From Chrysomallon squamiferum (taxonomy: Eukaryota > Animalia > Mollusca): DNA of 64,000 nt. The notes beneath the pieces were generated by a model. It saw nothing but the letters and a program-made list of their open reading frames with translations. It did no database searches and was not told the DNA's origin. The stretch spans positions 7,316,001 through 7,380,000 of the forward strand of contig CM022677.1 of assembly GCA_012295275.1 (NCBI GenBank). The letters are read 5' to 3'. Shown piece after piece: positions 1,161 through 61,830 of this stretch. Each line of letters begins with the position of its first letter. Position 1 is the first letter of the stretch. The position numbers were made by a program, and so were the translations under genes.

Positions 1161-1523
1161 CTTCATTTTCCTGCTTATATGTTGTTTGCGATACCTGATG
1201 AAGGTATCCCTTTTGTTGACTGTTGTATCAGAACAGCTTCCTCTACAACCATCAACAAAAAACACAAGTGTGATTCCAAGTGACTTTAGATCAGTGATAA
1301 ATTTACTGATGTAAGCCTCTATAGATGCATACTCTGCTCCACAGATTTGCAAATATGGATTCCGGTTAAAACTTTTCCAAAAAACTTCTAGCAGATAATA
1401 TCTGAATGAATTGAGATCAACAAGAATTTCAATTCCTTCCCGCTGCCTTGCTACCTCGACAAGGTCAAGTTTTTCCGTACAATTATTTCTGAAGCAGTAG
1501 TTGATCAGACCTTTGATTCCCAT
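1161..1523 (-). CDS. Asteroid/FAM120-like XPG/FEN1-type PIN nuclease, copy 1, coding exon 1 (gene continues left of the window)
   Basis: The translation has an MGIKGL start and ILVD and LVFFVDG motifs typical of the FEN1/XPG N region. There is an acceptor TTTGCAG just upstream of the ATG (exon starts 1539) and a donor AAG|GTGAGT at 1161/1160, giving 363 coding nt (121 codons). Positions 1-200 match the 3' end of intron 1 of copy 2 (47500-47700), so exon 2 lies just outside the window. Confidence 0.85.
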
Positions 1524-2791
1524 GTCTATTTTTGTTTTCCTGCAAATTTCAAAACGAATATCGTTTTAGAAAATTATGTAAACATTATTTTAAAATTAAC
1601 ACCGTCTATACTTATTATATATATATTTTTTCTTATTTTCTTTTATTATTATTATTATTATTATTATTTATTTATCTTTTTTGTGGAGGGTTACATTGAA
1701 AGGACACAAGAAATTTGCTTTAACAAAAAATAAAAATGTGTTTGTCATTACTACTACCACTATTATTATTATTATTATTAGTAGTAGTTGTAGTAGTAGT
1801 AGTAGTAGTAGTAGTATCCAGTTAATCCGTACAAAAGATGAATTGTCCTTGACATGGTAGGCAAGGGGGAATTGTCACGGGGGAAATGACCAAGGCGGAA
1901 GTCCCCAGGGGGTTAGTGACCATGGGAATTGACTGGGTGGAAATCTATCAATCTATCTAATCTATCTATAAATATTCAGTTTCATTTTTACTGATAACAG
2001 AATCAACGACTGTATTACGTGTATGAGTCACTCCTCGTTTCTTCTTCTCCTTCTTCTTCTTCTTCTTTTTTATTATTATTATTAGTAGTAGTAGTAGTAG
2101 TAGTATATTACGCTAGTTAGTAGGACTAGTAGCAGCAATATTAGTATATTTCTATATATATATATATATACACACACACACAAACACACACATATACACA
2201 TAGAGTAAAAAAAAATATAACGGAGATTAATGATGAACGTTAATAATTTAATATATTTTCAAGATCTAACCAAACACTTTACATTTTTTTTTTTAAAGGA
2301 GAAAACTTTCCAAGTATAAATTTGTGGAAATACACCATAATAAACTTCATTTTCCAACTTAATACAAGTTTTGTTTCGTTTCGAAAAATTAATTTTATTC
2401 TATGATTTATTATTCTTTACATTTGTGTTACGTACAACTGGCGCACCAAAATTGTTTTATAGTTTAGAGCCACTAAAGATCTTAATCCGACCATGGCGGT
2501 AGTTGTACGCCTAGTCAAACACAGTAACAGGACAGATGTTCACCACGTTTCTCACTGCTCTTTATTACTGATTATTTGTTAGTCATAAATACAGCTGGCC
2601 CCTTCTCTGATCTCAGCTAATAGTGGTGATAGCAGCACACCAAACTCACAATAACTTGAGAATTAACGAACTAAACTTAAATAATGTTTAATTAATAATC
2701 AATTAAAGTTTAACCAGCTTCTCGCATGACGTAAGATCGTACTCCGCTCTCGCGCCAGCGCACCTTGGTGACAGAGATTTGCTCCACCCAA

Positions 2792-2900
2792 TGCACTACC
2801 CACTGCACTACCCGCTGCACTACCCGCTGCACTACCCGCTGCACTACCCGCTGCACTACCCACTGCACTACACACTGCACTACACACTGCACTACCCGCT
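2792..2900. repeat. 12-bp minisatellite (CTGCACTACCCG) x ~9
   Basis: Directly visible tandem repeat in a locally CpG-rich segment. Confidence 0.95.
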
Positions 2901-4501
2901 GAGTTTTTCTACATTTTTAAACACTGCTTTAGGAGAGGCAGACGAGGAAATAGAAATGATATTTATTGTTATTATTGATTTGATCTCAATTATGACAAGT
3001 ATAATGTTTTGTTAACGAAACCGAAACTTGCCTTTAATTTACTTCCTCGTTGTAACTGCATGTAATAATTAATTAGTTTACAGTAAATTAATAAAGTTTA
3101 AATAATTAAAAATAAAAAGTGTTTAAAACACGAATGTTAAATGTTACTTGGGTAAAACTGGTTTTCCTTCCGCAGCGTGACACTCATATCACTGTTCTCT
3201 AATCGCTCATACGCCATTCATGATTATTAATTTACCTTTACTTCAGTCTTTGTAGGCATTTTGTCACAGTGACGTATCCGATTACTATCGACTGTTTGTA
3301 CATATCATACACCGGTACAGCTTGCATAATACGCAATATTTTAATAAATATTTAATGGACATATTGCCGACACAGGTATATAATAATTTAGCAAAACGTA
3401 TATTATATTAACAATGAAAGAAAAATAGTATATAACTGGAACTGCAAAAAAATGGCTTAAAGGTGACATCAGAATATTATGTTTATTTAAATAGTGTCGT
3501 AATATTACAGCTTATGTAAATAAATACTTATATAGTAATAATGATAATTATATTAATAATTATATGATAAAAACTATATTTTCACAAGAAATTAGAATGC
3601 TCAACGTAAGGCTCCCAAATAGTGCAATATTTTGAAAATGATAATTAAAGAATTTACAGAAGTGAAATTCTATTCGTTACTTAAAATGAACAATAATTAA
3701 TTTTATTTTAGAAATATTTCTGAAGTTTTGAATACAAATATCATACAAATAGCATCTTCATGTTGAAAAACCTTGGTCGCTTTGTATTCATACATAATCA
3801 TTTAAGTTTAACCGAAGGGAGGTGCCCCCTAGCATGTAGCATTGGAATAACATGATAATGATGATGATGATAATGATGATAATAATAATAAAAATAGTTT
3901 TACCATTTAATTTTATATATAAATCATTTTCATACCTCTATCTGACACAAAAGCCAAATTGTTTTGTGAGCTGGGATTTTGCTCTTATTTTTTGATAGAT
4001 GCAGACGTAAATACTCAAAATATCAATGGAAATACATCACATTTGGTTCTTAAAAAAACCTTCCTTAAAATTGCTGGTAAGTTATTTAGTTAAGAAAAAT
4101 ATTCATTTGATAAAAGTTTTATGTTGAAGTATATTATGCATCATTTCAAATTTTGTGTCTGTTTTCCAAACCCATCAAATTTCAGTTAATGACCAAGTCA
4201 ACAGAATAGTTTTAAAATATTTGCGTTGTGATGTCATCATGTAGAGATGGATCTTCTTGTTAAAGTTTCTACTAATGTCATAAAACCACAGTATCAATGT
4301 AAGTTATACATGTCTTGCAATATTATTAGTTATTTTTACTATCGCAAAATTTATGAATGATGATAATAAAAATAATTACTTGGAAGTATAAAGACTTTTA
4401 ATAGAACATATATTTGCCTAAAATACACATTAAAAGAGTAACATCATTAAAACAATAATAAATTTATATATTATTGTCTGATTTTGTTTTGTTCATTTCA
4501 G

Positions 4502-7316
4502 GAAACTTTTATCCAGGATGGGAATGAGAAGATGATACATCTATTGATATTCTTTACATGCTGGCTGATCAAGGAGCAAATCTCAAAATAAAAAACAAAG
4601 ATGGCAAGACACCCACAGACCTGATACAAAACAAAGAATTATCAAGGGTACCGATGAGGTAAATGCTAGGATTTCTTTATAAGCAGAATTATGAATTTCT
4701 CTTTTCCAAGTTATTTTTTTTAACACAGGAAGTAATGCAGTTTGCAAAATTCTGTATTAACACTTTAGCTAGTCACATGAAATTCAGTCACTTCCTCCTT
4801 TAGACTGCTCCAAGCTGAAAATTAAAAAAATTATCTTAGTTATAAGAGTTAAAACTGTTCATGTTCAGATACAGAATTGTTAAAAATTTATAACTAAGTA
4901 ATATTTCTTATCAAAATTGACTTCTACTTTCAGAACTGCTCAAAATGTTAAAACTAAATAAAAAAAAGCCACAGATTCACCCTCTTATTGGCAGTCCATA
5001 CAACAAGGTGTCAAGGTCCAGAAATCTCGCCGAGTTATAAACACTGCTTGACATCTGAAGAATTTCAGAACGTTTCTAATGATTTCAAGAGGACGCTCTC
5101 TAACAAATCTGTCATAGCAATACACAGAATTCAGAATCTTGACAGATGGGAACCTTTTTCCTTTGTATGTGTTCAATATTCTCAGCCTAATTTTCTTACA
5201 TTTTATATAAGTGTTTGAATGTGACATATTTTAAGATTTGAGAAAAATAAAAAGATAATTAATGATTTAGCTTTTGATAAAAGAAAAATCTGTGACTTCA
5301 GATCAGTGATGTTTTCCTAAAGCTGACATCAGATTTTATTGTAAATTATTATGTCATTTGCCTTCATGAGCAGACGTCCAAAGTCTTAATATTATAATTT
5401 ACTCCTATTAGACTGCATCCACCTTATCACATTACATCATTCATTTAAATGGGGAAATAAGAAAACCACATGTTCAAAGATATGTGGTCTGACATCATCG
5501 TTGAATCAAAGACTGCAGTTTAAAAAAAATATTAAAACTTATAAAATAATTCATCTGTCAAAAGATTAAAGAGAGAAATTACCTTTAATTATATAATATT
5601 AAAAAATACAAAAGTAAAGTATGAGGAATTTACCAGAAACAGTAAAATGAATTTTGAAATTCCATACTATACTTCCAGGATTTCCATATGAACCATGTTA
5701 TACTGATGTCCAAAGACATATATTTACAACTGATAAAATGGGTCAAACTTAGAACGAAATTATGGGGCGAATGAGCAACAACTGTTCCATGGTACCAAGA
5801 TCGCATTGTAAATCAAGGTACTGACTTTACAGTGGTAAAGCAAGCAATGTATGGTGATGGTGCCAACTTTGCTTCAGAATCCAAAACATCTGATGGCTAC
5901 ACTGAACCAAATGAAGAAGGAAACAGGTAACACACATTTTTGAAGTTTGATTAGAATAAACATGTCCAAAATTTAATTGAAAATAAATACAATTCAGTGT
6001 GTCTATGTGTGTAAATGTTTTGATAATCATATTACACATACAAAAATGGTTTTCAAAAGTTAATTTTAACATTTTAAAATTAACCTATTTAGAATGTTCA
6101 TTTATTTGCAAATAATTAATAATTGCATAGTATTTTAACCTCAATCTTTTATAAAATTGAACTGATAAAAGAAGCTACATCAAAACAAAAAGAAAAAATA
6201 TTATTTTTCATTTTATAGAAGCAAAAATGTCTATCTTTGAATATAAACATATCAATTTTATATAAAAAAAGAAAAAAGAAAAGAAAACAGTAGTCACAAA
6301 ACAGGCTGAAATGTTCATAGGCTAAAGTCATGCCCTTGTGGAATATGACCACATACAGTCTATTTTTCAGTGTAGTCCCTATTGCAGTCAATACACTTCT
6401 TCCAGTGATGCTGCAGTATTTGGGTCCCCTTGGCATAGAAGTACTCAACAGATATACTTCATCTGATATAACTGCTTCAGTATAGTTGTTGTTGGATTGT
6501 TTTCCAAATTTGAAAACATGATAATAAGATGGTGATAAAGCAGTAGAGAATGGAAGGTTGTCAATCAGTTCAAGGCCACATTGTAACCACAGATTTGCGT
6601 GCTGATAAAATAAGACCCCTTCATGAGTTTTCCTTGAATTTGATCTTGATAGAGTTGTGCAACTATGTCAGCATGAATATCTTCTGCAATATATTACTTG
6701 TTAATATATCAAATTTTGTCAGTTTTCTCTAAAAGTTGCTACTGAACTCCAGTACCTATCATATAATTGAGTTTATATGGAAATAAAAAGAATGGAGTAT
6801 GTCAGCAATTACAAGACTTAAAATTAACAAAGATTTGTTGTTTGTTACTTCTTCACATTTTTACTTTTCAACTTACAAAAGTTCCTCAATATCAGATTAT
6901 GATATCTGCTCTTAATAATTTGTCTTTTCTATTTCAATAAGGCAGTCAAAATCATGTTAAAACATGTATTTTTACTATATTTTTTAATCACTATTAATAT
7001 ATATTAATTCAATATAGAATTACATGTTTGAGCAATGCATATGTGTTCCTTTTTTCTTTTCTTTTTTTTTGTGCTTGAAGAGACATTAGTGTAATTAAGT
7101 TAAAGAAAATTTAATGAATATGATTATATTTTTCTAGGTTTATGTTCAGGGTGAGAGTACTTGTTGATAAATATACAAAAGATGAACAAGGAATGAAAAA
7201 ATCACCACCTGTTGACCAGTCTGTGCCAGATGAGCTCTATGACAGAGACCAACTAAGATGTTTGTAATTTTGACAATGCCCAGTGCTATGCAGAATACTT
7301 AATAAAATATCGTTAA
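4502..7316 (+). pseudogene. Ankyrin-repeat plus PARP catalytic domain gene (PARP12/14/TIPARP-like mono-ADP-ribosyltransferase), pseudogene
   Basis: Exon 4502-4658 encodes an ankyrin repeat (ILYMLADQGANLKIKNKDGKTPTDL) with an in-frame TGA. Exon 4934-5164 reads PSYW...SEEFQNVSNDFKRT...IHRIQNLDRW. Exon ~5720-5926 reads NEQQLFHGT...MYGDGANFA...SDGY. Exon 7138-7316 reads MFRVRVLV...PP...LYD...MFVIFDNAQCYAEYLIKY*. It carries several stops and frameshifts. Confidence 0.85.
6300..6720 (-). mobile_element. Decayed mariner (Mos1/SETMAR-like) transposase C-terminal fragment in the PARP intron
   Basis: The minus strand reads GKLMKG..., CGLELIDNLPFSTALSPSYYHVF (a degenerate HPPYSPDLAPSDY motif) and FYAKGTQILQHHWKKCIDCNRDYTEK*, the typical mariner C-terminus. 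Confidence 0.75.
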
Positions 7317-10300
7317 ACTGTTAATCAAAATTATAGCTAGACACAACATATTTGCTTGAACTCTTGTTTATAATATACTTGTGATGAAAATAGTCTAAAT
7401 ATTACATGTTGTTAACATACATTCTATTAGTAAAATATATTTTCTAAAACCAAAAGTATTACAAAACCAATATCCAGTATGATATTTAAAGTTAACAGTG
7501 ATAAAAATTAATTTTATTAAGACAATATATAACTGTGGTGCAGTAGTAATCATTTATATTTTAAATCTGTAGTTTTAAACAGGAACAACAGAAACTTTCA
7601 AACAATTATTAAAGTTTTTGAGTTAAAGTAATATTTCAAAAATTATATTTTCTAAAACTAATTACAGTTCAGGATTATTTGTATGACCAAATTTCTGACA
7701 TGCACTTTGTAGAAAGACAGAACATTTTATTTTTTAGTTAGAACATCACATCAATCCAACTGTTTGTAGTATTCGTAGTTTTCTCTTTGAGCATGTAATA
7801 TCAAAATTGGAAATATTTATTCATAGAAATATTTTATATGAAAAACTATATATAATTTGAACGTATTAATAGATAATATGACTGCATGATTCAAATGTAT
7901 CATAAGATAATAGCTGATAACACAGCTGAAAATACGTGATTGACAGATATTTTCTTGTCCAGTTTTAGCATTAGTTAACATAAACTTTTATTCAGTCAAT
8001 TAACACAAACATATTTGAAGGTGATAGATAAACAATGATACTGTAGGAAATAGATGATGTTCCAGACATCTCCACGTCAACATAACATGTTTCTACATTT
8101 GTTTATAGGAATGACTTCATAATGAGTTGTTGCTTTTAATAGTGTTTTTCTGTGTGATCTTATTTAAAGCACTTTAACAGCTTCAGTGTAAGTGGATCTT
8201 TATTTTGTTTTTAATAGATTTGAGTATAGTTTTACTCCAAGCACTAGACTTGAATCTTATTTACTTTGTTTCCTTTTCATAAGAATTTTATCTGTATTTT
8301 ATATTCTTTACTTTTTTTATAGGAATTTTATATAATCTTAATAATTTGTACTGATATTATTATTTATGGCTAAACAATATTGCTGATCATATACTCTGAC
8401 ATTTGTAACATTTTTAGTAATTGTGAATTATAATAAACAATTAATCAAATAAAAATCAAAGTTATGGCATTCATTGCAGTGGTTTTGTTGTTATTTCATT
8501 ATTATTATTTTTAATTATTATATTTTATTTATTTAACTTTTTGCTATTATTATTTATTTATTTATTTATTTATTTGACCTACTGAAAAATTAAAACTGCC
8601 AACAATTATAATGAATCCTGTAAAATAAAAACAGTTTAGAATATTATATTATTGTTTTGACTTTGAAGTTTTATTTTATGAAAAAACTAAAGGTAATTGA
8701 AAGCTACAGTTGTTTCAGTGTTTTGTTAAGAAAACAAACAAACAGAAAGTACATCAATAATTAACAAAATGAATTTACACACTGTACACGATGTGTTGGT
8801 TCCTATTTAAGGCTACAGTTTTGGGTGTAGCTAATAATGTCAGGATCTTACAGATGGTTACTGATAGTAAAAGTAAATAGATTACTGAAAAAAATGCATT
8901 TTGTATTTTTATCTCTGTTAAGGAACGCAGTGTACTTACAAGTATTTTTAAGTGAATCGTAGGATGTATTTCAGGTACTAATGACAGCTTGTGAATAGAA
9001 TGTATTTTAAGAACTTTCCAAATAAACACACAATTACACGGTTTTATGTGATAATTAAAGAGTGTATCTGACACTTTTAAATCTTATTATTTTATTTTAT
9101 TGCATCTATTTTATTAAATTTAAATCTTATTTTACATTATTTATTATTGTATTTTCATGCACCTGTTCTGTTGTTTTTAAATGTTATTTTACATTATTTA
9201 TTGTTCTATTTTCGTGCATCTGTTCTGTTTAATTTAAAAGCTATCCGTTTCTATATAGATGATTTCTGCATCAAAAAAAGTAACAGTATGACAGAAAATA
9301 AAAAAGAGATATTGCGAATCATCACCTTTTAAGGTGAAAAACTCCATTTGAGTTTCCAGGATATTCAGGTAATTAAATACCTGTTATAAATATAATATAG
9401 CGCAGTGAGTAATTTTGAAGATTAATATTAAATGAAGAAGAAAAAAAAAAATTATAATAAAGAAAATTGTCACAACTTAACTATTATTACTATATTTTAA
9501 ACTGTATCTTAACTGATCAACTAAACCAGTAACAATAATACAGAATATTTCCATGGTTTAAGTCAGTTTCAACCCTCTTTAATATTGTCATGTTAATTTT
9601 GTTTTTATTTCTCTCTTTTATTTTCTTATTAGTTTTGTTTATTGTAGTTTCTACACTTATACTGTGAGGTTGCTATGACAAAATCATACCACATTTTGGA
9701 GTGGGAGTTGTTTGTTGTGCATTTGTTTCTGAGTTAATTGGTCATATCTGGTTATTCTAACCTGCAAATATTTTTTGTTTTTACAGCCTGCCTGTATTTG
9801 TAACAAAAGATGTACATGGAAGATTTATTTTAATCTGTAGGTAATTCATGTACATAGGCTAAAAGAAAATTAATTAAGGCTGAAAACAATTTTGTAACGA
9901 AATCCAAATTACTTCTTTTTATCATCAGACAAAGATATCATGATGTGGCTGAAGTAGTCTTAAAAACTGTTTTTCTTTCTGTAATTACCTGTATAAATAC
10001 GATGTCTTCACTGAGTAATGATTGGTTTGTTAGTCAATTATTTAATTTCATGCTCTGAAATAGACAGAGCCAAGCTAAAATGAGGCAATGGTTTTATGAA
10101 TATATCTTTCCCCAGAAGCCAGTAGGTTGTCATAACTCCCTTACCCTGAAAAACCAAGTGAAGTTACATCTAGATTAAAACAAACCTTTTCTGTTTAAAC
10201 TGCTACAAATTATAGTACTTTCTTTTTTTATTAAAAAAAAATACTGCTTTGCAAATGATGTTTTTAATTATTTTATTTTTTCAATTCATTGCTAAACACA

Positions 10301-13300
10301 TTTTACAGACCCAAAAAATTGATCCAAGATGTTTTTAGTATTTTCACTCATCAGTATTCGTAAAGCTAAAATATATAAACAGAATAAACACTTTTAATTT
10401 GTAAATTCAAACAAAGCAATACTGTATAAGTTATTATTTATTAATTATATTTGGTTTAATATTAAACAATTTGATTATGTTATTGACATGAATATAAAAG
10501 TATTATTAAGCCATGCCTTCTTATTGAGATTTCATTAGTTTGCATACCTATATATAAATATATTTATATATTCAGTACACTTTCTTATCAGTTCCAGAGA
10601 CTAAGTAAGGATTGTTTATTTTCATTTGATGATGTATTATTCTGATATTTAACCTCAGGCAAACAAGAACAGAATGATATTTTCAGTAATTGTTAGATAA
10701 TACTAAAAACAAACCCAGTGAACTACTCTCCATTTGAGATGCTGTGTTGACAGTGTCTGCAAACAAACAATATCTAGGCATTTTAAGTCCAATAACACCA
10801 GCCACAATAGTTCCTGAAACAGTCAAAATGTTTTAGCGGATTACTAACTTAATAATTTATGAAAAGCATTTCAACTGATTTTAACATTTGCCCGATGATA
10901 TAGTACTCAGAACTGAATTTGAATAAATACTGATCAGTTTTTAAGTCTTAGTGTGTTTCAAAAATATTAAAAGTATTCTAAACAACTGTATTAATTTATA
11001 ATTTAATAATACTTGACTATTTACTAATATACTGACAATGCTTGACTGTTTTACATACCAGAATGTATTCCAACTTGGAGCTGAAGCATTCTGTCTGGCA
11101 TGTGTTTAATTTTAAAACCACTGACTGATGACAGCAGGTCCAGAGACATGGTAGCTATTTCTCCAGCATGTTTTGTCTCACTACGTATTGGCAAACCACT
11201 GACAACCATGTCTAGCAAAAAACAAAACAAAACAAAAACAATTTCCAAGACAGATATTCATGCTCTTGACAAGCAGCCACAGAAATGTATCTTCTGTAAT
11301 GATACTGTGTTAAACTGAAAATAAATCTATTAATTCTAGGGTGATTTAAATTGAAAATAATTAGAAACAGCTGAATTTTATATCAATATTTGTAAATTTG
11401 ACATTTATACGTATATATATATACATACATAAATAATTTTTTGCACTGTAATCTGTGGGATTCTTTTTATGTTAGCAATATAATTTTATGTTTAATAAAA
11501 AGAAACCACCAAATTACCAGGTAAAATGTTTGCCAGAGCCAACCTTAAATCAGATTTTCTGAATGTAACAAAAGTAGTGTTTTCATGTTGGCTATCAAGA
11601 GCATGGCTACTTTTCTTCAAAAGTGGAATAATTTATAGATGGGTGACAACATTTTATTTATAAACCCAATTACAGAACACAAACTATCATAACAACTTTT
11701 GATAATAACTTAGTCAGAAAAATACAACATATAATTTTGCATACAATTTCAAATACGTAAATAGAATACATGTGACTATATGATAACAAAATTAAATTTA
11801 AAAAATAAAATAAAAATCTCAACAGCTAGATGTTTGTTATCATTTTATTTACTGGAAAAAAAATAGATATTTAATTCACTTACAACCATAATGTACTGTT
11901 TGGGTCTTACACGCATCCCTATATTCATTTGAGAGATGTTTATGATGGCCATTTTATTAGTTCAGTTAAAAGTGATGTGGCATATAGAATTTTGAATAAT
12001 TCACTCACATGCATCACCAACTGTTTCTACTTTATATACATCATAACCATCAAGAATTCCATCAAATGTAGTGTACAGATCATTGAGTAATTCTACAATT
12101 TGTAGAGGAGTACTCTCTGTGGCAATTTTTGTAAAACCTACAATGTCACTGCAACATAAACAAAAATAACAGATGTGTAGAAAATCATTTGTATTTATTT
12201 CTGTTTTAAATTAAAGTATCAAAGTTATATTTCATATAAGAATGATGAATTATGATTATTTTGTTTGGAAAAATAAATTTCATAAAATTTCTGCATAAAT
12301 CCCAGTTTAAATAAATAAAATCCTTAAATATCACTGAAAAGATAGTTCTAGATATTGATATTTTTAAACTTCTCAGTTAACATTTAGAAAGAAACATTTT
12401 TATAAACTGAAGACCTGAAGAAGATGGTAATGCCGTGAAAGCTTTGAGGATCAACACTGTGCCCATATTTTAAATCTTCTTCAACTTGTTTTGGTAACAT
12501 CTGACGAATAAGCATTTCAGTTTTTTGTTTCTCAGCAATCAGATCCTTTGTTCTCTCAGCAACAATGCCCTCAAGATCTGTGGAACACTTCTGAAGCTTT
12601 AAGAAACATATCAAGCTAGTGTACATTAGATTCAGTGCAAAGAAAGTAACCACAATTTTGCATAATAATCATATAATTTACAAATATACATAAATTATTT
12701 AAAAAAACAACAAAACAAGGACAAATTTCAAGAAGTAATCAATAGTACTGATTTTTAGTTTAATAATTAATCTTAGCTTTTATTACTCCTCTGTAAGAAA
12801 ATGAACTGGCTTTAAAAATACATCATGATCCACAACACAAATTGTTATGTATGTGACCCCTATACAAAACATGTAACATCCTTATAATTTTTGTTAAAAT
12901 ATGGAGGCTGTAAACTTTATTCAAAATATAGATTCTATAGTAATAATCTGCTTTTGAAACACCAGTAAATGAACACACCATGTTTACAAGATTATCAGTG
13001 AGATCTCCTTTCATTGGGTAGATGCGATTTAGATTGCTCAGTAAGGTCTTGAAAGTTGGTCGTTCATGTGGCTGTTCATTCCACGTTTCTGACTAGAGAG
13101 ATAAAACATTATTTCAAAGTTTACTTATACTGTAGTCTTAATAACACACATAACAACAAATGCTCCTGTGAATGAAGCAATAAAATAGCAATTTTTAATA
13201 TCACACACACACACACACAAAACTGTATTATAAATTTTATTTTATTATTTTATCACTGTCACCTATTGTGGATTACTGAATTGTATATATCTTGCCTTTT

Positions 13301-16300
13301 CAATAACAGGATAGTAACTATGATGGCCTTTGAGAAACTGCTTACAGACAATCAGTTGGAACATGAAAAAGCTGAATGGGAGCACCACAGAAGATTAATA
13401 CAAAATTAAAAAATTCCGGAATGTAAGAAATACTTTCAGAGGACATGTGTCCATTATTTCCCATCCAGCCTGACTACTGAGAAAAACAATCTGCCTCACT
13501 TCTAGTTAAAATGAATGTTCATGATAAAATAGTTTTAGGTGTTTTATATTAGTTTTTCACATATCTTATAACACCTGATGGAACATTTTTCATTACAGTC
13601 AGTGCTTGGTGTCTAGTTTATCTATTTAAATAAAGAGATATATAGAAGGTCACTGATGTGAGGGGAGGTGTACAAAAAAAAGAAGATTAACAATAGCCCT
13701 GACCAGTAGATTAAAAAATGGTTGGATGTATCATTAATAAAAATACTCATATTTTGACACATGAAAGATAAATACTATTATTTATGAATTTACTAGCATC
13801 AAATTAAAATCTTTAATGAATACAATTAGGGATAAATTTGGCTTGACACTACATCTATTACCTTAAGTATTTGGGTCTCTTCTCTTATGTTTTCAGGCAA
13901 CATAGATCAATATGTGGTTGGAAATAATCTTCAACTTCAATATACAATGTACTCAACAGCTGGAGAAGAAACCATATATAGAAATATATTTTATTTGTTT
14001 TAGAATGTCTTAAAATAAAAAATAAATTAACAAGTAAATAAAAAATGAAAGAAATAATAAATAAATTCATTTATTCAATAATAAATTAAAATTACATTAT
14101 TTTCTGTTTCAATTTTTTGTTTGTTTTTCCTACCTTTAATGCAGGTTTACATTCTGGTGACTCTTTTGACCTAAGCAGATTGAGAATGTCATCTGAAGAG
14201 ATCATGGAGAGTTCAGCGCTGTATGGTTCTTCACGATTGATGATTTCAGTTAAAATGATTGCAAATCTGAAAGAACAATCATTTAAAACTATTACAAAAT
14301 GAAATAAATATTTCAATAAATTTACTTCTAATTCAAGAAAGGTCACTCTTGTTCAAACCATAACTGGATATAAGACTGAATTTTGTTGGTTCTTCTATTC
14401 AGTTATTTCCCTTTCTAGCCAGTAATTTCTGGCAGATAATTAAAGGAAATATTCATGAAATAAACAACATACATGTATATGAGCTCACAAAACTGAGTGG
14501 TATAATAATATTCTTAAAGATTGTCAAATTTCAACACTAAGGGTTCATCATCTGGTACTGATATTCTTGGAGCCAGATATCTCATCATCAGACATCCATG
14601 GCCTAAAATTATGATTATATGAACAAACCACTGCAAATCTATGAACATGTATTGTTAATAACTTAAACACAGAAGGGTAAATGGCAGCATCCATAATTTA
14701 GGTAATTCTATATTTTTTTTTTTTTTAACTATTTCATTAATTTATTTTATTTTATTGTACATTATGAGAAACTTTGAGACGTCCATGTGACTGGAGTGGA
14801 GACTGGTGAATGTAACTCATTCCACGACAGATATCTTTGAGAATAGAAAATCAAAAACTCCAGTCTAATGGAACTGAATCATTGGACAGGACATCTTCTA
14901 AGTTTCCCTCTTTGTAATAAAAACAAATAAGATAAAGAGACAAGTGGAGTTTTTTCTTACTTTTTGATAACGTTATCATACATGTAAGCATCAGACGACA
15001 GTTATAGTTTTTACATGACTTAAGAGTATACACAAACCTATTTATGCCCACAATTATTTAAAATATTATTAAACTATTTACAGGTGGAACTGGTGTCAGT
15101 TCAAATCTTTCACTAACCATCATTCCTGTTGAAGTATTAAATCTGCAATATATAAATATATCTCTCTTAAAATAAACTCAATATAAAAATAAATTATTAA
15201 AACAGTTAACACATTTAAAAGATTCATGATAATTATAGCTTTCCTTAAAGTTTTATAAAGTATAAGTGGATAACAATCAAAATGAATTATTATATTATGT
15301 ATTAAAAACAATATACTTGATGTGTAAACCATGTTTTTGAAGCAAACAATAGACACAAAATAAACCTGCTATGTATTACTACATCTCATGTAAACTCTCT
15401 TTATTAACAAACTACTGACATCTAAAGCTAACCTTGGTAGAAGTGGTTATATATGAGATAGTATATTCCAGAAATTCATTTTAAACTAAATGTATTAAGC
15501 AATACCTAAGTGATAAATTATAGAATTCAAATATCATATTTTATACTCTAGAAGTTAAAAGAATATAAAACTTAATTAACACAATGTACAGAAATAAACA
15601 AGTGTTGGTAAAACAAACTACAAAACTGTATCAAAAACACTGAACAATAAAATCTCACCAAAAAGTTTCAAAAAGGACACAAAATCACTTGAGAATGATT
15701 ATGATTCTAAATAAAATAGTAAAACTCTTCTCACAAACGCTTATTAACAAAGTTAGCATTGGGAAACCCTGCTGGAGCTACTTCATAACTCCAAGGTGGG
15801 GCGTCCAGTGGAGGAAGTGCTTGGACTCCTGCTGTGGATTCTTGTCAAGTTTATGTATGAAGCGGCTGAAAATTAAACATTAATTTGTAGACTGTAAACC
15901 ACTTCCAAAATATAAAGGTATTTATTTTTAATTCTGACAATTCTCTCAAGGTGGAATATGAATATACAGATGAATAATTGGCATTTCATTTGAACTCGGG
16001 ATTCATTAAACTGTAGACTCCTTGACTAATAAAAGTGTTTTAATTCTCTGACACTGTAATTTTAATCATAATGATACAAAAAAAAAAATGTTGTTCATGC
16101 AAAGAATTTTCCTAGTTATAGCCAAGAATACACAAGTAAATTAATAAAATAATTTGTCATAAATACTTACCAAGATAAAGTGAAAAAAAGGAGAAACTTC
16201 TACATTTTATTATTTTTTTAAATAACTTTTTTTTTTTAATACAGAATTGTTTATTAAGTTTATTTTACTTACAGTAGATATTAAAGTATCAGATGTTGAA

Positions 16301-18029
16301 GGATGTGGATATAAAGTTACTACATGTCTGATATATCCTGGTCTGTTTCCATTATTATCAAATTTTATTATTCCAGTTAAACCAACTGTCTTAGTCTAGA
16401 AAACAAAGAAATATAACTTCAGAAACATCTTAAACCACACACCTCCCACTTAAACCACCAGACACACAGAAACTATGTATACAAATATACATACACTCTC
16501 AGTTCCTATAATGCGTGATAAAAAAATTGGCAAATTTTGTATTTATAACTTTTTTATATTCAGTATTATGAACATGTTCAAAACAGAAACAAAAATGTTA
16601 CCTTTCGAATTTGGTGTGCAAGGTTTATACCAGTCATAGTTTTCTGATTTTTAATATTCACTGCAATGGCAAACGTCATCATGGTATCACAAAGAATATA
16701 TTCCAGTTATCTGTGTAATATCAGTAGTCATTTAAATACTTTTGATAATGTGTAATTTCAGCAATATTTCCTTATAAAACTGAAGACAAAAAAAGAAAAA
16801 AGTTATAATAATAAAATAAATAAAAATTTAAAAATGATGAAAGAAAAAATATTTTGCATATTATTTTTTTTTAAAGTGAAAACAAAAAGAAAACTGAAAA
16901 TATTATTTCATAAATAATAAGAAAACAATGAAATGAGAAAAAACAACCTGGAAATAAGAAAAGCATTAAACAAAAAAGTAAAAGGAATTATTTTCTTTAC
17001 TGTTTTCATTAAATGACATTATAAATGAATATTGAAATGTTCAGACACACAGGAACATTCATTCTAAAATTTCATTATTTTCTATGTCTATTGGTTCTGC
17101 CAGAGGATCCATAACTGGATATGCTGATAAAAATACATGAAGTCCTTTCAAAGCAAAAGTACATGTTGGAAACTGGCATTAGAAGAAAAACAATTACATT
17201 CATTATCATTTCCAGATAAACCGCAGAACAAATTTAATTACAAGATCTTTTAAAAAGTAGGAACCATAGCTGTTTCTAAAAAAATCTCACTGGGGATTAA
17301 AAATAATTTGTAATTTGGCACAAAACAGGTCAGTCTAAAAACATGAATTTCTTTCTCTTCACTTCAGGTATTTCTGTTTTTATTTATAAATTTCCTATTG
17401 ACATGAAAATTATTTACATGAACAAATGAAAATTATTAACTAAAATTTACTTCCTTGCATTCTTCATCCTTATTTGTCCAAGGAAACTCCCATGAAAATT
17501 TCTTATAATGTAACCCACTGATAACCATTTGATTTCTGAAAAAAAATAAAAATTTAAAATATTTTTAATGTATCCTTGGTGACTTACTGGGAAGCTTACT
17601 AATTGTTTTATTTGGGGTTTTTTCCCATTAAATTTAATTAATACAGAAATTAACAACAAAAGAGTATTGTGTAAACATACCTGGATGGCATTTTATTGTG
17701 CAGTTTTGCTTTAAAATTTTATTTAAAGGAGAGAGAATTTTTTTTTATAGATAATTATAACATAATGACTCAAGTTGTAAAGGGATTATAAGAAGAGCTT
17801 ATAAATATATTTTTTATTTTGTTGTCATAATGTGTTAATCAAATTCTTTCTACATTGTAATATTAACAATAATTTCTTAATTTATTTATCTTCATTTTAA
17901 TTCTGAAAATGTTAGTTAGCTTCATCAGAAATATATAAAACTAAAAAAAGCTGTAATATTTACTGAACTGCAGTTGATCAAAGGAAATGTTATTTGATTG
18001 TGGTTTATGTTTGAGACAAGTTTGGTCCT

Positions 18030-18245
18030 TACCACACCTGGATATTTGTGACCACTCCTATGATGACAGGGATGTCACACTTGGACATTAAGGGCTGTAC
18101 TTGTAATTTGTGCATGAACTGTTCGCTAATACAGATAATGGATGCACCTGTGTCTACAAGAGCCATCGTTTTAACTTGACCCACCTCAACTTGAACTGTG
18201 TTTTTTGTTAAGGGAGTACAAGTGAAACGTATTCTGGTTTGTGCC
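18030..18245 (-). mobile_element. LTR retrotransposon (Ty3/Gypsy-like) aspartic protease fragment
   Basis: The minus strand reads VQVEVGQVKTMALVDTGASIICIS, a retropepsin D-T-G motif at 18146-18154. No RT, integrase or LTR pair is recognisable. Confidence 0.75.
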
Positions 18246-38376: not shown

Positions 38377-38414
<38 letters not shown>

Positions 38415-38799
38415 GTTTTTATTATTTTATTGTTGTTATTATTATTTATTTATTTACCCTTGTTTAGAAGTTTTTAATCTTTGCAGACGCTAACAAAATA
38501 GATACATTCTGTAATAAAATATTCTATCGTTGTTAATCTTCATGTACTTAGACATTTAATATAAATGTATTTGTCTTGACTCATTATTTTATTACGTTGT
38601 GTCACTTTTCACTTGATTCACATTAAACACTCCTTAATACAGTTTTAAACACACACACTAATATTAATAATCAAAAGAAAGGTTAACACACTACTATTGA
38701 AATTTCAGAAATATACTAAAACATATTTACTTTCATATACACACGAAAACATGAATATACCCTTCATTTGATTAGTTTCTGCTCTGTTACTGACACTGA

Positions 38800-38847
<48 letters not shown>

Positions 38848-42880: not shown

Positions 42881-42911
<31 letters not shown>

Positions 42912-42974
42912 GTGTATGTAAGTATGTATGTATGTGTTTATGTGTGTGTGTATGTATGTATGTATGTATGTGTT

Positions 42975-43010
<36 letters not shown>

Positions 43011-43749: not shown

Positions 43750-43782
<33 letters not shown>

Positions 43783-46492: not shown

Positions 46493-46569
<77 letters not shown>

Positions 46570-49322
46570 GTAAAAATGTAACATACCATTGTTTTAGCTA
46601 GACGTGGATGGTTATCCAAAGTCCTGCATGCCTGTATCAGTTCAGCTGCCTCTTTAAAACGACACTGATAGTTAACATCCTGACCCAGTTCATCGAGAAC
46701 CGGGCGAGTGAAATCATTTCCAACTATAATGCTCATTTCCACAAGCTGATCGACATCATCAAACTGAAACAAAGATTCATTTTTCATATTCCAATATACA
46801 ATCTACATTTCTGTGAGTTGATATAAATGATCACACTGAAATAATAATGTATTCACTATTACAAAGTACTGTACTCATTTCTATGTGTTGAGATAAATGA
46901 TCAACAGTATCAGTCGTAACATAATACTAGTATAGACATAACATAATAACTGTAGAAGTCGTAATATAATAACAGTAGCAGTAATACAATAACAGTACAA
47001 GATGTGATATAATAACGATACCAGTGGTAATATAATAACAATAATACTAGCATCAGTTACAGTGTTAGCACATACTAATACAATTTCAAAATTATTTTAT
47101 TACTTTGAGTTGCTCTCTTAGTTTATCAGACGTTATCATCTCACAACGCAAATGTTGAAGATTCTTTGGCCATCTCATTTCTTCATTTATAGGCCAAATT
47201 CCTCTGAATGGAATCACCTTGCTTTCTCTAAATATACAGAAATCTGCGTCATTTGATAAAATGGCAAACGCTTTCTCCCGTTCCTGTAATTCTTTAGCTA
47301 TAACAGGATCAGCCTCAGAAAGAGACTGAACGATTTCACATTCACATTGTTTTATAATGGAGAACATTTCAGTGTCAAAATTAGCCGGGATTGGCGGCTC
47401 AACTGATCTGAGAGTAGAAATAGGTTTTTTTCGTGAACAAACATCAAGTATCTGTAAAGAAACAAATACAAATTATTATTATTATTATTATTAAATTTTC
47501 GCCGTGTTAATTAAGTATGCAGCATAGATTAGTATTCTAAAATTTTATTTTCAAAATATGATAATATAAAGCTACCATTACAAAGCACTTCTACAATTTG
47601 TTATCTTTGGTTTTATCAATCTTACTGATGGAGGTTTTCTTTGGCTTTGATTTGCATTCGATGTGTATCTATATTAGAAATGTATCCGTATGTACTTTAC
47701 AGTGTATATATATATATATATGATCCGAATATTTACCGTATGTTTCAAATTCCACGAAAACTAGTCATGTGTTATTTCACTTTGTTAATTTGCCAACATT
47801 ATCGGCCTAATTTCGTAGAAAATAAATATTGCATTAAAATATGTATTTGTTATCACATTTCTAATCCTGTATCTAGTTGCACAAAACAAATAAATTCGCT
47901 GAATGGATGTAAACTTTATTTTTGCATAACATTACCTTATTAGGAAACATTTCAGAATGATTTTCTAGTTTTACTGAACCAATTCGTGGAATTTAAAAAG
48001 GAAACTAGAAAGTAGTCGTTTATATAATACTGACTGTTCGTTTGAGAGTAAGGAACATCCAGCGAGAACGTGTAAGTTTGATTTAAAATTCTTATTCCTA
48101 TACTTTATATTTAACTGATAGATTATTCATTACTTGTTCATTAAATTATAACTAGGATTAACGAATAGTTTATAGATATATAAGTCATGACTACAAGGAA
48201 GTGTCATATACAAACACTAGAAGGAAACAACACAACACACCACACCAATTACAAATTCATCTTTGTTCAGTAAGATCTCGTAAATTAGTGGGAAAGTTTT
48301 TTGGACCCAGTCAGATTTTGATAGACTAGTAAAAATTGGTATTTACATAAGGATACCGCAAAGATTTTTTCTTTAATTATTTTACTTTTACATTATTGAA
48401 TTTAAAAACTAGATATTCTCAAACTAACAGAAATAGAAAAATCCAACTAAAAACTGCTTTACAAATATGTCTTACATCTTTCCGGTCTGTCTACTCGCTA
48501 TTATATAGAGTAGAATATTTATATACATACATACATACATGCATGTGTACCAATAAATACTCTTGAAATATATCTGTATCTTGTATAGACTATACCAAGT
48601 ACTGGATGTATACCTAAGGTACTTTACATACGTAATGTATAGCTACAATAACCAGATATTTTATACTGTTTACCCGTACACACTACATATATATATCGAT
48701 ATGTTTCGGATTCTATATAATTATATAAAATATCTCGTATATGCTGGAATGGTGGATGTGCATCAAGTGTATAATGAACGTTACCTATACATCTTGGTAT
48801 AGTCTATACAAGATACAGATATATTTCAAGTATTTACTGGTACACACGATATGAATCCAGAAGCGTTAGTTTGTATGGACACATAAGGTATGAATTTTTG
48901 TAATATAAAACATACAGTACGAACTGGTCATACACGTGCATAGGTAATTGCATACTAACCTTGTCTTTCTTTTTTATTTCTTCTTGGCGATACTCGGACA
49001 CTATTTTCCATTTGCTGTGTGTTTTATCAAAATAGTTTCCTCTACTACCATGAACAAAAAACACAAGTGTGATTCCAAGTGACTTTAGATCAGTGATAAA
49101 TTTACTGATGTAAGCCTCTATAGATGCATACTCTGCTCCACAGATTTGCAAATATAGATTCCGGTTAAGACTTTTCCAAAAAGGTTTTAGCAGATAATAT
49201 CTGAATGAACTGAAATCAACAAGAATTTCAATTCCTTTCCGCTCCCTTGCTACCTCGACAAGGTCAAGTTTTTCCGTACATTTATTTTCGAAGCAGTAGT
49301 TGAACAGACCTTTGATTCCCAT
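42241..49322 (-). CDS. Asteroid/FAM120-like PIN-domain nuclease, copy 2, 8 coding exons, about 575 aa
   Basis: Phase-compatible GT-AG exons: 49322-48960, 47451-47104 (SEAD, ILSNDADF), 46763-46587 (IIVGNDF), 45925-45647, 45180-45066, 44469-44246 (EFSALVAVV, DVRCLTISTWFQ), 43489-43363 (PLPHETFSGSVW) and 42335-42241 (TGA). Total 1728 nt. The exon 4 donor CCT|GTGAGG is the least certain junction. Confidence 0.8.
44575..44750 (-). mobile_element. Probable tRNA-derived SINE in an intron of PIN gene copy 2
   Basis: The minus strand begins GGCAGTCGGCGTTGTCACGGT (A-box-like), followed by GTTTGAGTC (B-box-like). It is GC-richer than its flanks. Confidence 0.45.
47722..48502. mobile_element. Unclassified insertion of about 780 bp in intron 1 of PIN copies 2 and 3
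   Basis: It starts GATCCGAATATTTACC right after a (TA)n tract and is absent at the equivalent site of copy 1 (~200-220). A more diverged copy of the same end lies at ~51600-51845. Confidence 0.6.
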
Positions 49323-50268: not shown

Positions 50269-51207
50269 ATATCTCACTTAGCTGGAATGTACTGGAAGAG
50301 ATATCTCACTTAGCTGGACTGTACTGGAAGAGATATCTCACTTAGCTGGAATGTACTGGAAGAGATATCTCACGTAGCTGGAATGTACTGGAAGAGATAT
50401 CTCACTTAGCTGGAATGTACTGGAAGAGATATCTCACTTAGGTGGAATGTACTGGAAGAGATATCTCACTTAGCTGGACTGTACTGGAAGAGATATCTCA
50501 CCTAGGTAGATTGCATTGGAAGAGATATCTCACTTAGCTGGAATGTACTGGAAAAGATATCTCACTTAGCTGGAATGTACTGGAAAAGATATCTCACTTA
50601 GCTGGACTGTACTGGAAGAGATATCTCACTTAGCTGGAATGTACTGGAAAAGATATCTCACTTAGCTGGACTGTACTGGAAGAGATATCTCACTTAGCTT
50701 GAATGTACTGGAAGAAATATCTCACTTAGCTGGACTGTACTGGAAGAGATATCTCACCTAGGTAGATTGGATTGGAAGAGATATCTTACCTAGGTGGACT
50801 GTATTGGCGGAGATATCTCACCTAGGTGGACTGGATTGGAAGAGGTATCTCACCTAGGTGGATTGCATTTGAAGAGACATCTCACCTAGGTGGACTGTAT
50901 TGGCAGAGATATCTCACCTAGGTGGACTGTATTGGCAGAGATATCTCACCTAGGTGGACTGTATTGGCAGAGATATCTCACCTAGGTGGACTGTATTGGA
51001 TGAGACATCTCACCTAGGTGGATTGCATTGGAAGAGATATCTCACCTAGGTGGACTGTATTGGCAGAGACATCTCACCTAGGTGGACTGTATTGGATGAG
51101 ACATCTCACCTAGGTGGACTGTATTGGATGAGACATCTCACCTAGGTGGATTGCATTGGAAGAGATATCTCACCTAGGTGGACTGCATTGGAAGAGACAT
51201 CTCACAT
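50269..51207. repeat. 32-bp minisatellite, about 29 units, two variant domains
   Basis: The unit ATATCTCACTTAGCTGGAATGTACTGGAAGAG changes at ~50750 to ATATCTCACCTAGGTGGACTGTATTGG(A/C)AGAG. Confidence 0.97.
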
Positions 51208-53127
51208 AGATTCTATTTTTGAAAAAAAATACATATTTTATTAAGAGGAGAAAATCGTTGTAAAAGCTAGTACGAAATATTTCCTAATAAAGTAATGTTA
51301 TGTGCACATTTAAATTCTAAAGATATTTGCAAAGCTAAATCACAGTGCCTTTATAAAATTTCAACCATCCAAATCTTACCGATTCCAAAAAATATTCCCG
51401 TCGATTTACGAGATTTTGTCTTTTGTCAGCTAGGCGCAATTTCTATTTAACGTGTTGTTATTTGCTCCTTATGTAAGTGTTTATTATACTTTTTTTTTAA
51501 ATTAAATAACATATATGAAAAGGCAATTCGTGAACCGGAAGTGCATTTTATTTCTCATTTATGTTATTTAGCGAACGTGAGTAAAGAAACTGAAAAAACG
51601 CATTAGGAATTTTCGTGGAATTAGAAAAAGAAAGTGCATATTCGTTCAGCGAATTTATTTGGTTTCTATAACTGGATGCTGGATTAAAGAACACATTTAG
51701 AAATGTGATATAAAATACATATTTTAATGCGAAATTTATTTTGTGCGGAATTTATCTATACATTTTGGCGAACTTGGTTAAACAAAGAGAAAGCACTCAT
51801 GACTGTTTTCGTCGAATTAGAAAAATGAGGTAAATATTCGGATCAGTGAACATATCAGGAAATATCTTCTCTACTGAGTGGGCTCCCTTCGCTCACTCAG
51901 CACAAAAATAATAATAATAATAATAATAAAAATATAGCGACTCTTCAAGTTTCTTTTTGTTTTGTTAATATGAAATAACTCCTAACCTGTACATAACACA
52001 TATTTCTACCTTTTATTTAACAAAACTATGACAGTTCTACATTCTTATTCACTTTTATCAGTCATGTAGACTTAAATGTGACAATTGTCAGCCGATATAT
52101 AACAATACAGAAAGAGAAATTAGGATACTGAGATATGAAAGAAAAATAGCGAGTAGACAGACCGGAAAGATGTAAGACATATTTGTAAAGCAGGTCTTAG
52201 TTGGATTTTTCTATTTCTGTTAGTTTGAGAATATCTAGTTTTTAAATTCAATAATGTAAAAGTAAAATAATTAAAGAAAAAATCTTTGCGGTATCCTTAT
52301 GTAAATACCAATTTTTACTAGTCTATCAAAATCTGACTGGGTCCAAAAAACGTTCCCACTAATTTACGAGATCTTACTGAACAAAGATGAATTTGTAATT
52401 GGTGTGGTGTGTTGTTTCCTTCTAGTGTTTGTATATGACACTTCCTTGTAGTCATGACTTATATATCTATAAACTATTCGTTAATCCTAGTTATAATTTA
52501 ATGAACAAGTAATGAATAATCTATCAGTTAAATATAAAGTATAGGAATAAGAATTTTAAATCAAACTTACACGTTCTCGCTGGATGTTCCTTACTCTCAA
52601 ACGAACAGTCAGTATTATATAAACAACTACTTTCTAGTTTCCTTTTTAAATTCCACGAATTGGTTCAGTAAAACTAGAAAATCATCTAATGTTATGCAAA
52701 AATAAAGTTTACATTCATTCAGCGAATTTATTTGTTTTGTGCAACTAGATACAGGATTAGAAATGTGATATCAAATACATATTTTAATGCAATATTTATT
52801 TTCTACGAAATTAGGCCGATAATGTTGGCGAATTAACAAAGTGAAATAACACATAACTAGTTTTCGTGGAATTTGAAACATACGGTAAATATTCGGATCA
52901 TATATATATATATGTACTGTAAAGTACATACGGATTCATTTCTAATATAGATACACATCGAATGCATGTCAAAGTTGAAAAAAAACCTCCGTCAGTAAGA
53001 TTGATAAAACGAAAGATAACAAATTGTAGAAGTGCTTTGTAATGGTAGCTTTATATTATCATATTTTGAAAATAAAATTTTGGAATACTAATCTATGTTG
53101 CATACTTAATTAACATGGCGATTGAAA

Positions 53128-53167
<40 letters not shown>

Positions 53168-53202
53168 CATAATCATAATCATTTTTATTTGTTTCTTTAC
53201 AG

Positions 53203-53549
53203 ATACTTGATGTTTGTACACAAACGAACATTTTTCTACTCTCAGATCAGTTGAGCCGCCAATCCCGGCTAATTTTGACACTGAAATATTCTCCATTATA
53301 AAACAGTGTGAATGTGAAATCGTTCAGTGTCTTTCTGAGGCTGATCATGTTATAGCTAAAGAATTGCAGGAACGGGAAAAAGCGTTTGCCATTTTATCAA
53401 ATGACGCAGATTTCTGTATATTTAGAGAAAGCAAGGTGATTCCATTCAGAGGATGTTGGCCTATAAATGAAGAAATGAGATGGCCAAAGAATCTTCAACA
53501 TTTGCGTTGTGAGATGATAACGTCTGATAAACTAAGAGAGCAACTCAAA
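53203..53549 (+). pseudogene. Asteroid-like PIN nuclease copy 3: isolated, inverted exon 2 with a 1-bp deletion
   Basis: It has a TTACAG|ATACTTGAT acceptor and an AAA|GTAATA donor as in copy 2 exon 2, but is 347 nt rather than 348, with the frameshift in the first 11 codons. No exon 1 or exon 3 homolog lies in the duplicated arm. Confidence 0.85.
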
Positions 53550-53659
53550 GTAATAAAATAATTTTGAAACTCTGTTTGTATGTGCTAACACAGTAACTGC
53601 TGCTAGTATTATTGTTATTATATTACCACTGGTACTGTTATTATATCTCACTAAACTCA

Positions 53660-59505: not shown

Positions 59506-60187
59506 AGTCAGCCACACGGAACTCTCTTTTTTCTTACTTAAGTACATATCTTTTTTACTTTCCTGTTGTATTTATAAAAATAAATGTTAGTTTAGGTATA
59601 TGTTTGTGTGGGTGTCGTTTTTATTATTTTATTGTTGTTATTATTATTTATTTATTTACCCTTGTTTAGAAGTCTTTAATATTTACAGACGCTAACACAA
59701 TAGATATATACTGTAATAAAATATTTTATCATTGTTAATCTTCATGTACTTAGACATTTAATATAAATGTATTTGTCTTGACTCATTATTTATTTACACT
59801 GTGTCACTTTTCACTTGATTCACATTAAACACTCCTTAATACAATTTTAAACATTGATCGCACACACACACAAACACACACACACACACACTTTTGTTTT
59901 AAGAGAAATAAACTTGAAATTTAGTGCTATTATGAATTGTTTGATTGGATTATTTGTTGTTTTAACGCATACACAGTTTTCATATATGCGATATCTTACA
60001 CAGACTACACAGTTTGGTAAATTCCTGGACAATAATTAGCAACTTACTGTAGTGTGAGTTCTAAGTTTTGTGATTTTATTTGGTGCATTAACATAAATTA
60101 AGAAGAAGAAAGAAAAAATAGGGTGAAAAAAAATAACAACACCGTTTATTTGTAAAATGAACCATATCGATTTATAATTTGATTAAA

Positions 60188-60387
60188 NNNNNNNNNNNNN
60201 NNNNNNNNNNNNNNNNNNNNNNNNNNNNNNNNNNNNNNNNNNNNNNNNNNNNNNNNNNNNNNNNNNNNNNNNNNNNNNNNNNNNNNNNNNNNNNNNNNNN
60301 NNNNNNNNNNNNNNNNNNNNNNNNNNNNNNNNNNNNNNNNNNNNNNNNNNNNNNNNNNNNNNNNNNNNNNNNNNNNNNNNNNNNNNN
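60188..60387. other. Assembly gap (200 N)
   Basis: Run of N. Confidence 1.
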
Positions 60388-60801
60388 CCAACTTCATATA
60401 AATATTTTACAAATAAATATCTGCATTCTATTACTATCATCACCGTCACCATCATTGCCTTTTTACATCATCATCACTGTTTTATTCTACATTATCATCA
60501 TCATCATCATCATGACATCTTTTACATCATGATCATCATCACTGCCATTTTCTACGTCAACATCGTCATCATCATCCCATTATTATTATTACTATGAACA
60601 TAAGAATAAGAACTTTTTGAAATAGTTAAGTTCAGCCATAGCAGCAGAATAAAATATATAATAGAATAGTAAAATATATAGTAGAATATATAGATGAATA
60701 AATATTTCTATTTTTGATCAGTAGAATAAAAAAAAAAAAAAGATGGATACCAGCTGAAGGAAAACTAATACACCTAGAGTGATGTTGTAAGGCTTCAAAT
60801 A

Positions 60802-61830
60802 TTACTCATATCCTAGTAGAAGACAAAATTCGATTAGCAAAGAAGTTTTTCCAAAACAGAGAAGTAAATATACGACTAATAACAGACTGATTGTTAATGT
60901 GTCCAGCTGGAAAATTTCGTCCGACTTTCCTGACTCTGAGACGTGGCAATTTCCATTTCTTGTGGTGTGCACGATGATGGTGAATCTTTCAGAGCAAACT
61001 GGACAATTTATTCTGCTTCTAGACCACCTCAACAAACAGCTGAAAAAACCCCTCATGTAAACATGAGTCTTCATGACATCCATCATCCTCTGCTTTCCGT
61101 TTTCTAGATGTTGATATCTCTGGTCCTCCACATGATGTTTCTCCAGAGTAACTTTCTGAAATTATATTTTTTGTTGTTTGAACTATTTCTATTTTTATTT
61201 TATTTTATTTGCAGTAAACTGGATTCAGCAATGGTGAGTGATGCTGATGTTGATGTCCCTGAAATTTCTCCTTGTGATGTTTCTCCAGAGTCACTTTCGG
61301 AAGACATTCAAACTTTTGGAGGCTTCTCCGGGCATTCATCATCCTCTGCTTTCCGTTTCCTAGATGTTGATGACCCTGGTCTTTCTCCACGTGATGTTTC
61401 TCCTGAGTCACATGTTTAGTTTCAGACTGTTGTATTGATTCAGCAGTGGTGGTTGATGCTGATGTTGATTTCCTTGGTCTTTCTCCAAGTGATGTTTCTC
61501 CAGAGTCACATTTTGAAGTTTCAGACTGTTGTATTGATTCAGCAGTGGTGGTTGATGCTGATGTTGATGTCCCTGGTCTTTCTGCTCTGTGATGTTTCTC
61601 TAGAGTCACATTTTGAAGTTTCAGACTGTTGTGTTGCTTCCGCAGTGGTGGTTGATGCTGATCTTGATGTTCTTGGTCTTTCTCCACGTGATGTTTCTCC
61701 TGAGTCACTTTCGGAAGACTTTAGAACTGTTGGAGTCTTCTCCGGGCATTCATCATCCTCTGCTTTCCGTTTCCTAGATGTTGATGTCCCTGGTTCTCCA
61801 CATGATGTTTCTCCAGAGTAACTTTCTGAA
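60802..61830 (-). pseudogene. TOPORS-like RING remnant preceded by Ser/Thr-rich coding repeats of about 99 bp
   Basis: It reads DSCLHE-[frameshift]-FFSCLLRWSRSRINCPVCSERFTIIVH, resembling the second half of the TOPORS RING (CLHKFCFRC...W...CPLCK..F.SI.H). The first CxxC is absent. Upstream are repeats SGETSxGERPRxSTSASTTTAES and RKRK motifs, with frameshifts. Confidence 0.6.

Follow-up and report, generated by a model that had tools for sequence, protein, structure and literature searches.

The mollusc Chrysomallon squamiferum carries, in the 64,000 nucleotides analysed here (contig CM022677.1, positions 7,316,001 to 7,380,000; hereafter the window), copies of a PIN nuclease gene among broken genes of the ankyrin-PARP, TRIM-like and RING kinds. 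This raises the question of whether such a neighbourhood is a defence island, as the initial annotation of the sequence proposed, or whether the PIN genes have a history of their own. The answer that we find somewhat more probable than the rest taken together is that a FEN-type PIN family appears to be under birth-and-death evolution with diversifying selection in a zone of duplication, likely in a conflict over nucleic acids. According to the sequence comparisons below, PIN copies would arise through local duplication and would then change at the helical arch, through which the substrate would pass; some of them, here copies B and C, would afterwards die. Conflict with viruses or transposons likely keeps reshaping the predicted RNA-directed nuclease, whose immune role is putative.

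PIN copies in the window and selection between them

Three PIN nuclease copies had been annotated. The PIN sequence is confirmed in them, but just one of the three is a near-complete gene, the others being a first exon and an orphan exon. Copy A is seen as coding exon 1 (1161..1523, minus strand), which is open over 121 codons and keeps both exon-1 Asp residues. The rest of the copy lies past the left edge of the window, over which its intron 1 runs; in bases 1-219 the sequence corresponds to the last part of copy B's intron 1. Copy B (42241..49322, minus strand) has eight exons with GT-AG borders, located by mapping homologs back onto the window: exons 1 to 4 at 49322-48960, 47451-47104, 46763-46587 and 45925-45624, and exons 5 to 8 at 45180-45066, 44469-44246, 43489-43363 and 42335-42241. 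As assembled, it has a single frameshift near 45694 in exon 4, with the loss of about six conserved residues there, and its catalytic Asp91 is changed to His, so that FVDG reads FVHG. Copy C consists of an orphan exon 2 at about 53203-53549 on the plus strand, its frame shifted by 1 nt; it lies in 52145..53650, which the self-comparison of the window identified as the inverted duplicate of 47003-48502. Three related loci (L001-L003) lack the intron that follows codon 121 in the window copies (48960/47451), and there exon 1 runs straight on into exon 2.

Between the exon 1 of copy A and that of copy B, differences affect 41.3 of 288.7 nonsynonymous sites and 1.7 of 74.3 synonymous ones (Fisher p=0.004); of the 115 intron bases that adjoin the exon, one is different. 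Codon-based maximum likelihood (GY94) on the same exon rejected a ratio of nonsynonymous to synonymous rates (omega) of 1, with a likelihood ratio test (LRT) statistic of 14.7 and p=1.3e-4, omega itself being poorly bounded; the rejection held without six ambiguous codons (p=4e-5). Within codons 1-90 alone, all 13 changes are nonsynonymous (LRT p=0.003). Few of the differences are at third positions, 7/43 between A and B and 3/30 between B and a paralog found in RNA. About 30 of the 43 exon-1 differences between A and B fall within codons 91-121, which correspond to a long helix that follows the FxDG strand (residues 103-131 in the model of homolog P0003) and align with the helical arch region of FEN-1; we assume an equivalence to the Lys/Arg residues of the FEN1 arch. 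The branch of copy B was about four times longer than that of its sister in a quick tree, 1.13 as compared to 0.29. It is likely that the PIN paralogs are under diversifying selection, with the signal concentrated at the predicted helical arch.

The paralog in RNA was observed among the sequencing runs, 9 of the 11 listed containing the window stretch or part of it; runs X6, X7, X10 and X11, with a small share of the words, were set aside. The RNA runs X8 and X9 hold spliced contigs joined at the predicted exon borders, among them a 2125-nt record, which are about 90% like copy B and agree with its junctions after exons 1, 2 and 3. Exon depth was 53-257, while intron bins were mostly 0-6 and at most 19, and a second spliced variant of low depth was also present. 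DNA run X1, possibly the source sample itself, carries exon 1 of copy B with 0-1 differences, which implies that the RNA contigs represent further paralogs. Among the variants covered, the RNA paralog and B differ in 27 codons, and in 26 of these the change is nonsynonymous (p=0.012). In exon 1 the RNA paralog differs from B at 10 of the sites covered, 9 of which distinguish it from A too, so the signal does not come from pseudogene B alone. The RNA paralog retains Asp91, and the end of its 5' leader had no match within the window.

The PIN family and its relatives

A search with PIN exon 1 gave five homologs of about 250-640 residues. The nearest named homolog of the PIN gene is from the gastropod Gigantopelta (44%). 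The family is made up of proteins of about 620 residues, named 'uncharacterized' or 'Asteroid domain-containing', in gastropods, bivalves, a nemertean and an annelid (31 matches), and in a cephalopod as well. Judged from these sequences, it is an uncharacterised lophotrochozoan clade of its own. Five family entries of Mya arenaria (P0019, P0028, P0029, P0031 and P0032) are on one 76.8-Mb record, and further duplicates occur in the P0014 lineage. Another duplicate set, P0004/P0005, has FVNG instead of the catalytic FxDG. A full-length member was also observed on a GC-rich, intron-rich eukaryotic contig (L007:8771-14134), which suggests that the range of the family extends beyond lophotrochozoans.

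To judge from the model of homolog P0003 (predicted local distance difference test score 90), not of a window protein, the fold is that of FEN1/EXO1, with a helical arch and a helix-three-turn-helix (H3TH) region; the Foldseek match to FEN1/EXO1 has an E of about 2e-6. The best viral fold match of P0003 is an Asteroid-domain protein over 613 columns. The family profile matches FEN-1 (E=0.0015), the acidic motifs and the GNDF motif that FEN1 and EXO1 also have are conserved, and the acidic metal-binding and basic arch residues are retained in most members. Unlike these structure-specific 5' nucleases, to which identity is about 16%, the family has a C-terminal extension of about 250 residues, and the arch of the window copies is rewritten. 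With the Mkt1/ASTE1 (Asteroid)/FAM120A-C members of the Rad2/XPG group it shares an N-terminal FEN-like PIN domain and a long helical C-terminal half, but it scores 12.3-15.5 bits against Pfam XPG_I_2, under the family cut-off of 24.2 bits, and forms a separate lophotrochozoan clade in trees that contained no named ASTE1 or FAM120. The nearest Atlas clusters bear Asteroid_N, FAM120A and XPG_I_2. Excerpts of one paper describe the function of XPG_I_2 as unknown and the helical arch as orienting the substrate (PMC5499597). A literature search found no reported function for the PIN family and no mention of six ortholog locus ids.

The profile search gave 865 representatives. A DEAH/RHA Walker A motif is present in 25 of the best 150 of these (25 of the 36 with at least 700 residues), and helicase domains were confirmed in the long relatives, with named examples from Sycon and Cyanophora. 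In the Sycon 'spindle-E-like' protein P0111 (E=1.8e-65) and in Cyanophora P0170 the whole module of about 600 residues is N-terminal to the helicase, whereas the mollusc genes end after the module. The type of helicase is ambiguous, Spindle-E matching with E=2e-68 as compared to 1e-67 for DHX29. In a FastTree tree of 89 rows, all of them matches that span 380 or more profile positions, helicase fusions lie next to the stand-alone lophotrochozoan clade; the root is arbitrary, so the tree does not demonstrate a loss of the helicase in this clade. A helicase remnant was sought in the window and none was found. The module was also observed as the N-terminal part of DEAH/RHA helicases of 2400-3450 residues from a sponge, a glaucophyte and others (P0111, P0167, P0170, P0176, P0201 and others), in many divergent versions, some of which have weak PAM2 matches.

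The idea of the initial annotation that the Asteroid-like nuclease is a gene of conflict or defence gains support from the excess of nonsynonymous over synonymous change, from the DEAH fusions and from trout aste1, which the excerpted text of PMC12934228 calls a typical interferon-induced gene, induced together with rsad2, mx and isg15; its membership in an island does not. Fish aste1 is likewise an Asteroid-type PIN gene, but orthology to the window family is unlikely given the Pfam scores. The main text of a zebrafish preprint on interferon-stimulated genes does not mention aste1 (10.1101/693333), and a literature search combining FAM120A, virus and PIN domain found no paper.

Several points weigh against a nuclease shaped by conflict. 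Positive selection by itself points to no cause. The nonsynonymous rate of codons 1-90 is not above the divergence of the flanking non-coding sequence (p=0.45), which means that the signal leans heavily on one patch, possibly one of gene conversion. The Trp and Arg found in the arch of the family are gone from both A and B and copy B has lost the catalytic Asp, so these copies may not cut, and the PIN copies of the window may be catalytically inactive. Runs X8 and X9 come from one study and are represented by contigs, with 46575-49400 as the region examined, and the comparison of the RNA paralog with B covers 40 of 318 variants, 30 of them exonic. Finally, the one oyster gene labelled 'asteroid 1', which may or may not be an ortholog, is given as 'not regulated' by polyinosinic-polycytidylic acid, poly(I:C), in the part of the data seen from PMC7064767.

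A bolder version of the birth-and-death reading is tentative. The PIN genes would then be an unrecognised invertebrate restriction-factor family, free-standing and derived from an ancient PIN-DEAH helicase machine that destroyed RNA; snails and clams would amplify it and diversify its substrate-threading arch against RNA viruses or transposons, and here it would sit in a true PARP/TRIM-like immune cluster. Little is understood of the Mkt1/ASTE1/FAM120 group, and most antiviral effectors of molluscs have been recognised by their resemblance to genes of vertebrates. A concrete candidate for such an effector is offered by a clade that combines a conserved nuclease fold with helicase-fused relatives and putative diversifying selection focused on the arch.

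Neighbouring genes and the defence island question

It is unlikely, in our judgement, that the window holds a true defence cluster, with PIN, ankyrin-PARP and TRIM-like genes retained side by side as a co-regulated antiviral module. No more than 50 kb does separate the three kinds of gene. The ankyrin-PARP forms a divergent pair with PIN A, 2.5 kb away, and the block between them, upstream of PIN A (3490..3877, unstranded), recurs upstream of PIN B at 49582-49961 with 81% identity. The recurrence of the pair's spacer can be counted in favour of a cluster; the shared block also implies that a part of the layout is the result of one co-duplication. Birth, loss and positive selection are described for the macro-PARPs in PMC4038475, and local duplication, loss and positive selection are what the window has in common with macro-PARP and TRIM clusters of the birth-and-death type. 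It differs from them in that the selected gene is a PIN nuclease, and in that the PARP is a pseudogene with ankyrin instead of macro domains. In the rows seen of the oyster poly(I:C) data (PMC7064767), 2 of 3 PARP14-like rows are 'sustained', but 'not regulated' is the entry for each of the first 6 TRIM rows, out of 34.

The state of the neighbours themselves also argues against a cluster. The ankyrin and mono-ADP-ribosyltransferase (mono-ART)-type PARP gene (3998..7336, plus strand) is a pseudogene of five exon pieces with frame changes in four of them. Its ankyrin exon (4528-4659) is firm, with 275 PDB sequences at E of at most 10 and ankyrin repeats on top. The PARP-catalytic part is present as annotated but weak, in three collinear pieces, two of which resemble PARP12/14/15 (E=0.005 and E=0.47), while the search with the middle piece gave no match; the Pfam PARP match has E=0.034. 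Read by eye, the PARP motif has the His, an Asn replacing the Tyr, and Met at the third position, and we take this motif to be the mono-ART triad. A full-length ankyrin-PARP relative was sought and not found, so the architecture rests on pieces. The second ankyrin remnant of the initial annotation was not recovered: the candidates at 50105-50278 and 40127-40342 had no PDB match and 102 frames had no ankyrin Pfam match, although Pfam can miss ankyrins that are short and decayed, and it did miss the genuine exon.

The TRIM-NHL gene is a RING-coiled-NHL gene of the TRIM2/3-like kind (27353..29278, minus strand; exons 29278-28994 and 28694-27353). Its RING is above the Pfam cut-offs and NHL repeats are present, but no B-box was matched by Pfam among the scanned frames, and the two exons join in compatible phase with no B-box between them. 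There are two 1-nt frameshifts, each placeable in short homopolymer runs, so the gene may be intact and the frameshifts may be assembly errors. The annotated TRIM remnant comes to a piece of about 97 bp around the TRIM exon-2 acceptor (30801..30892, minus strand; 83%). A half RING-like remnant (60805..61830, minus strand) lies behind a Ser/Thr-rich repeat of about 100 bp. It holds the C-terminal half only of the RING, with Pfam E=0.006-0.01, below cut-off; among RING chains in PDB it matches one from a herpesvirus best (E=0.056), and its TOPORS label is unconfirmed.

Interleaved with these is a receptor guanylate cyclase gene (10030..23232, minus strand; 5' extent approximate), whose in-frame stops bear out its annotation as a pseudogene. 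Within it are an aspartyl protease remnant of long terminal repeat (LTR) retrotransposon type (18032..18250, minus strand; gag-asp_proteas E=5e-7) and broken open reading frames like those of DNA transposons (20470..21879, plus strand; DUF4371 E=0.006, below cut-off), which are presumably hAT-like.

The window thus does not demonstrate a working defence island, as most of the partners are dead, co-duplication accounts for part of the layout, and the cyclase pseudogene and two transposon remnants are interleaved. Conserved linkage in relatives was not seen either. We examined 13 related loci, most of them short, and in the two family loci with identifiable neighbours, a weak test, the PIN gene is beside housekeeping genes, an acetyl-CoA transporter (Acatn) at L001 and tetratricopeptide repeat (TPR) and talin genes at L007, with no PARP or TRIM. 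The matches listed from the defense island literature held nothing on this. The PIN copies' broken neighbours of the PARP, TRIM-like and RING kinds are probably no more than bystanders, and the alternative already considered in the initial annotation, a duplication sink, fits them well. The window illustrates how the impression of a defence island can stem from co-duplication and decay.

Other explanations and the duplication structure

Less likely again than a defence cluster is that the selection is real and not immune. The PIN copies would then be duplicates of mRNA-regulating or DNA-repair genes of the Mkt1/FAM120/ASTE1-like kind, possibly catalytically dead, adapting to a partner, a symbiont or the environment. 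Excerpts of two papers show that this structural group includes both mRNA regulators and repair nucleases (PMC12345631, PMC9879193). Residues of the arch and of the active site are altered in the window copies, which would suit such a change of role. However, repeated birth and death with diversification among paralogs is, from general knowledge, better explained by antagonism than by one-way adaptation.

The least likely explanation for the PIN genes is a plain duplication sink with neutral decay, in which the nonsynonymous excess would be an artefact, either because the sites are few or because a distant paralog contributed sequence by gene conversion. In its favour, duplicates occupy 20% of the window, copies B and C carry lesions, and the differences cluster in one patch where the proportion of synonymous differences is raised too (1.7/16 sites), but neutral decay should give an omega near 1 and not the avoidance of third positions, and neither the 13 to 0 changes in codons 1-90 nor the spliced paralogs in RNA contigs agree with it.

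The direct and inverted duplications annotated in the window were confirmed by the self-comparison, in which non-tandem duplicates make up 12,940 of the 64,000 bases. The window is AT-rich (GC content 0.23-0.38), has abundant microsatellites and contains two 200-N gaps. A large direct segmental duplicate (32111..39252, unstranded) has its partner at about 54799-60179, with 78-97% identity in pieces, and a family search of the scanned frames in it gave no match. A further direct duplication joins 1046-1649 with 48830-49456, and an inverted one, of about 70% identity, joins 24.2-24.9 kb with 39.0-39.9 kb. Short open frames of coding-like composition and a Cys-rich piece were observed at 39977-40668, and no Pfam or PDB identity was found for them. 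About 1 kb upstream of PIN B is a tandem repeat of a 32-bp unit (50269..51209, unstranded; 29 copies), which has two subtypes of the unit, with drift from one to the other over its length. Each arm of the large duplication contains, at 34852-35183 and 56949-57280 respectively, a two-copy repeat of 162 bp, which is probably a dispersed repeat element.

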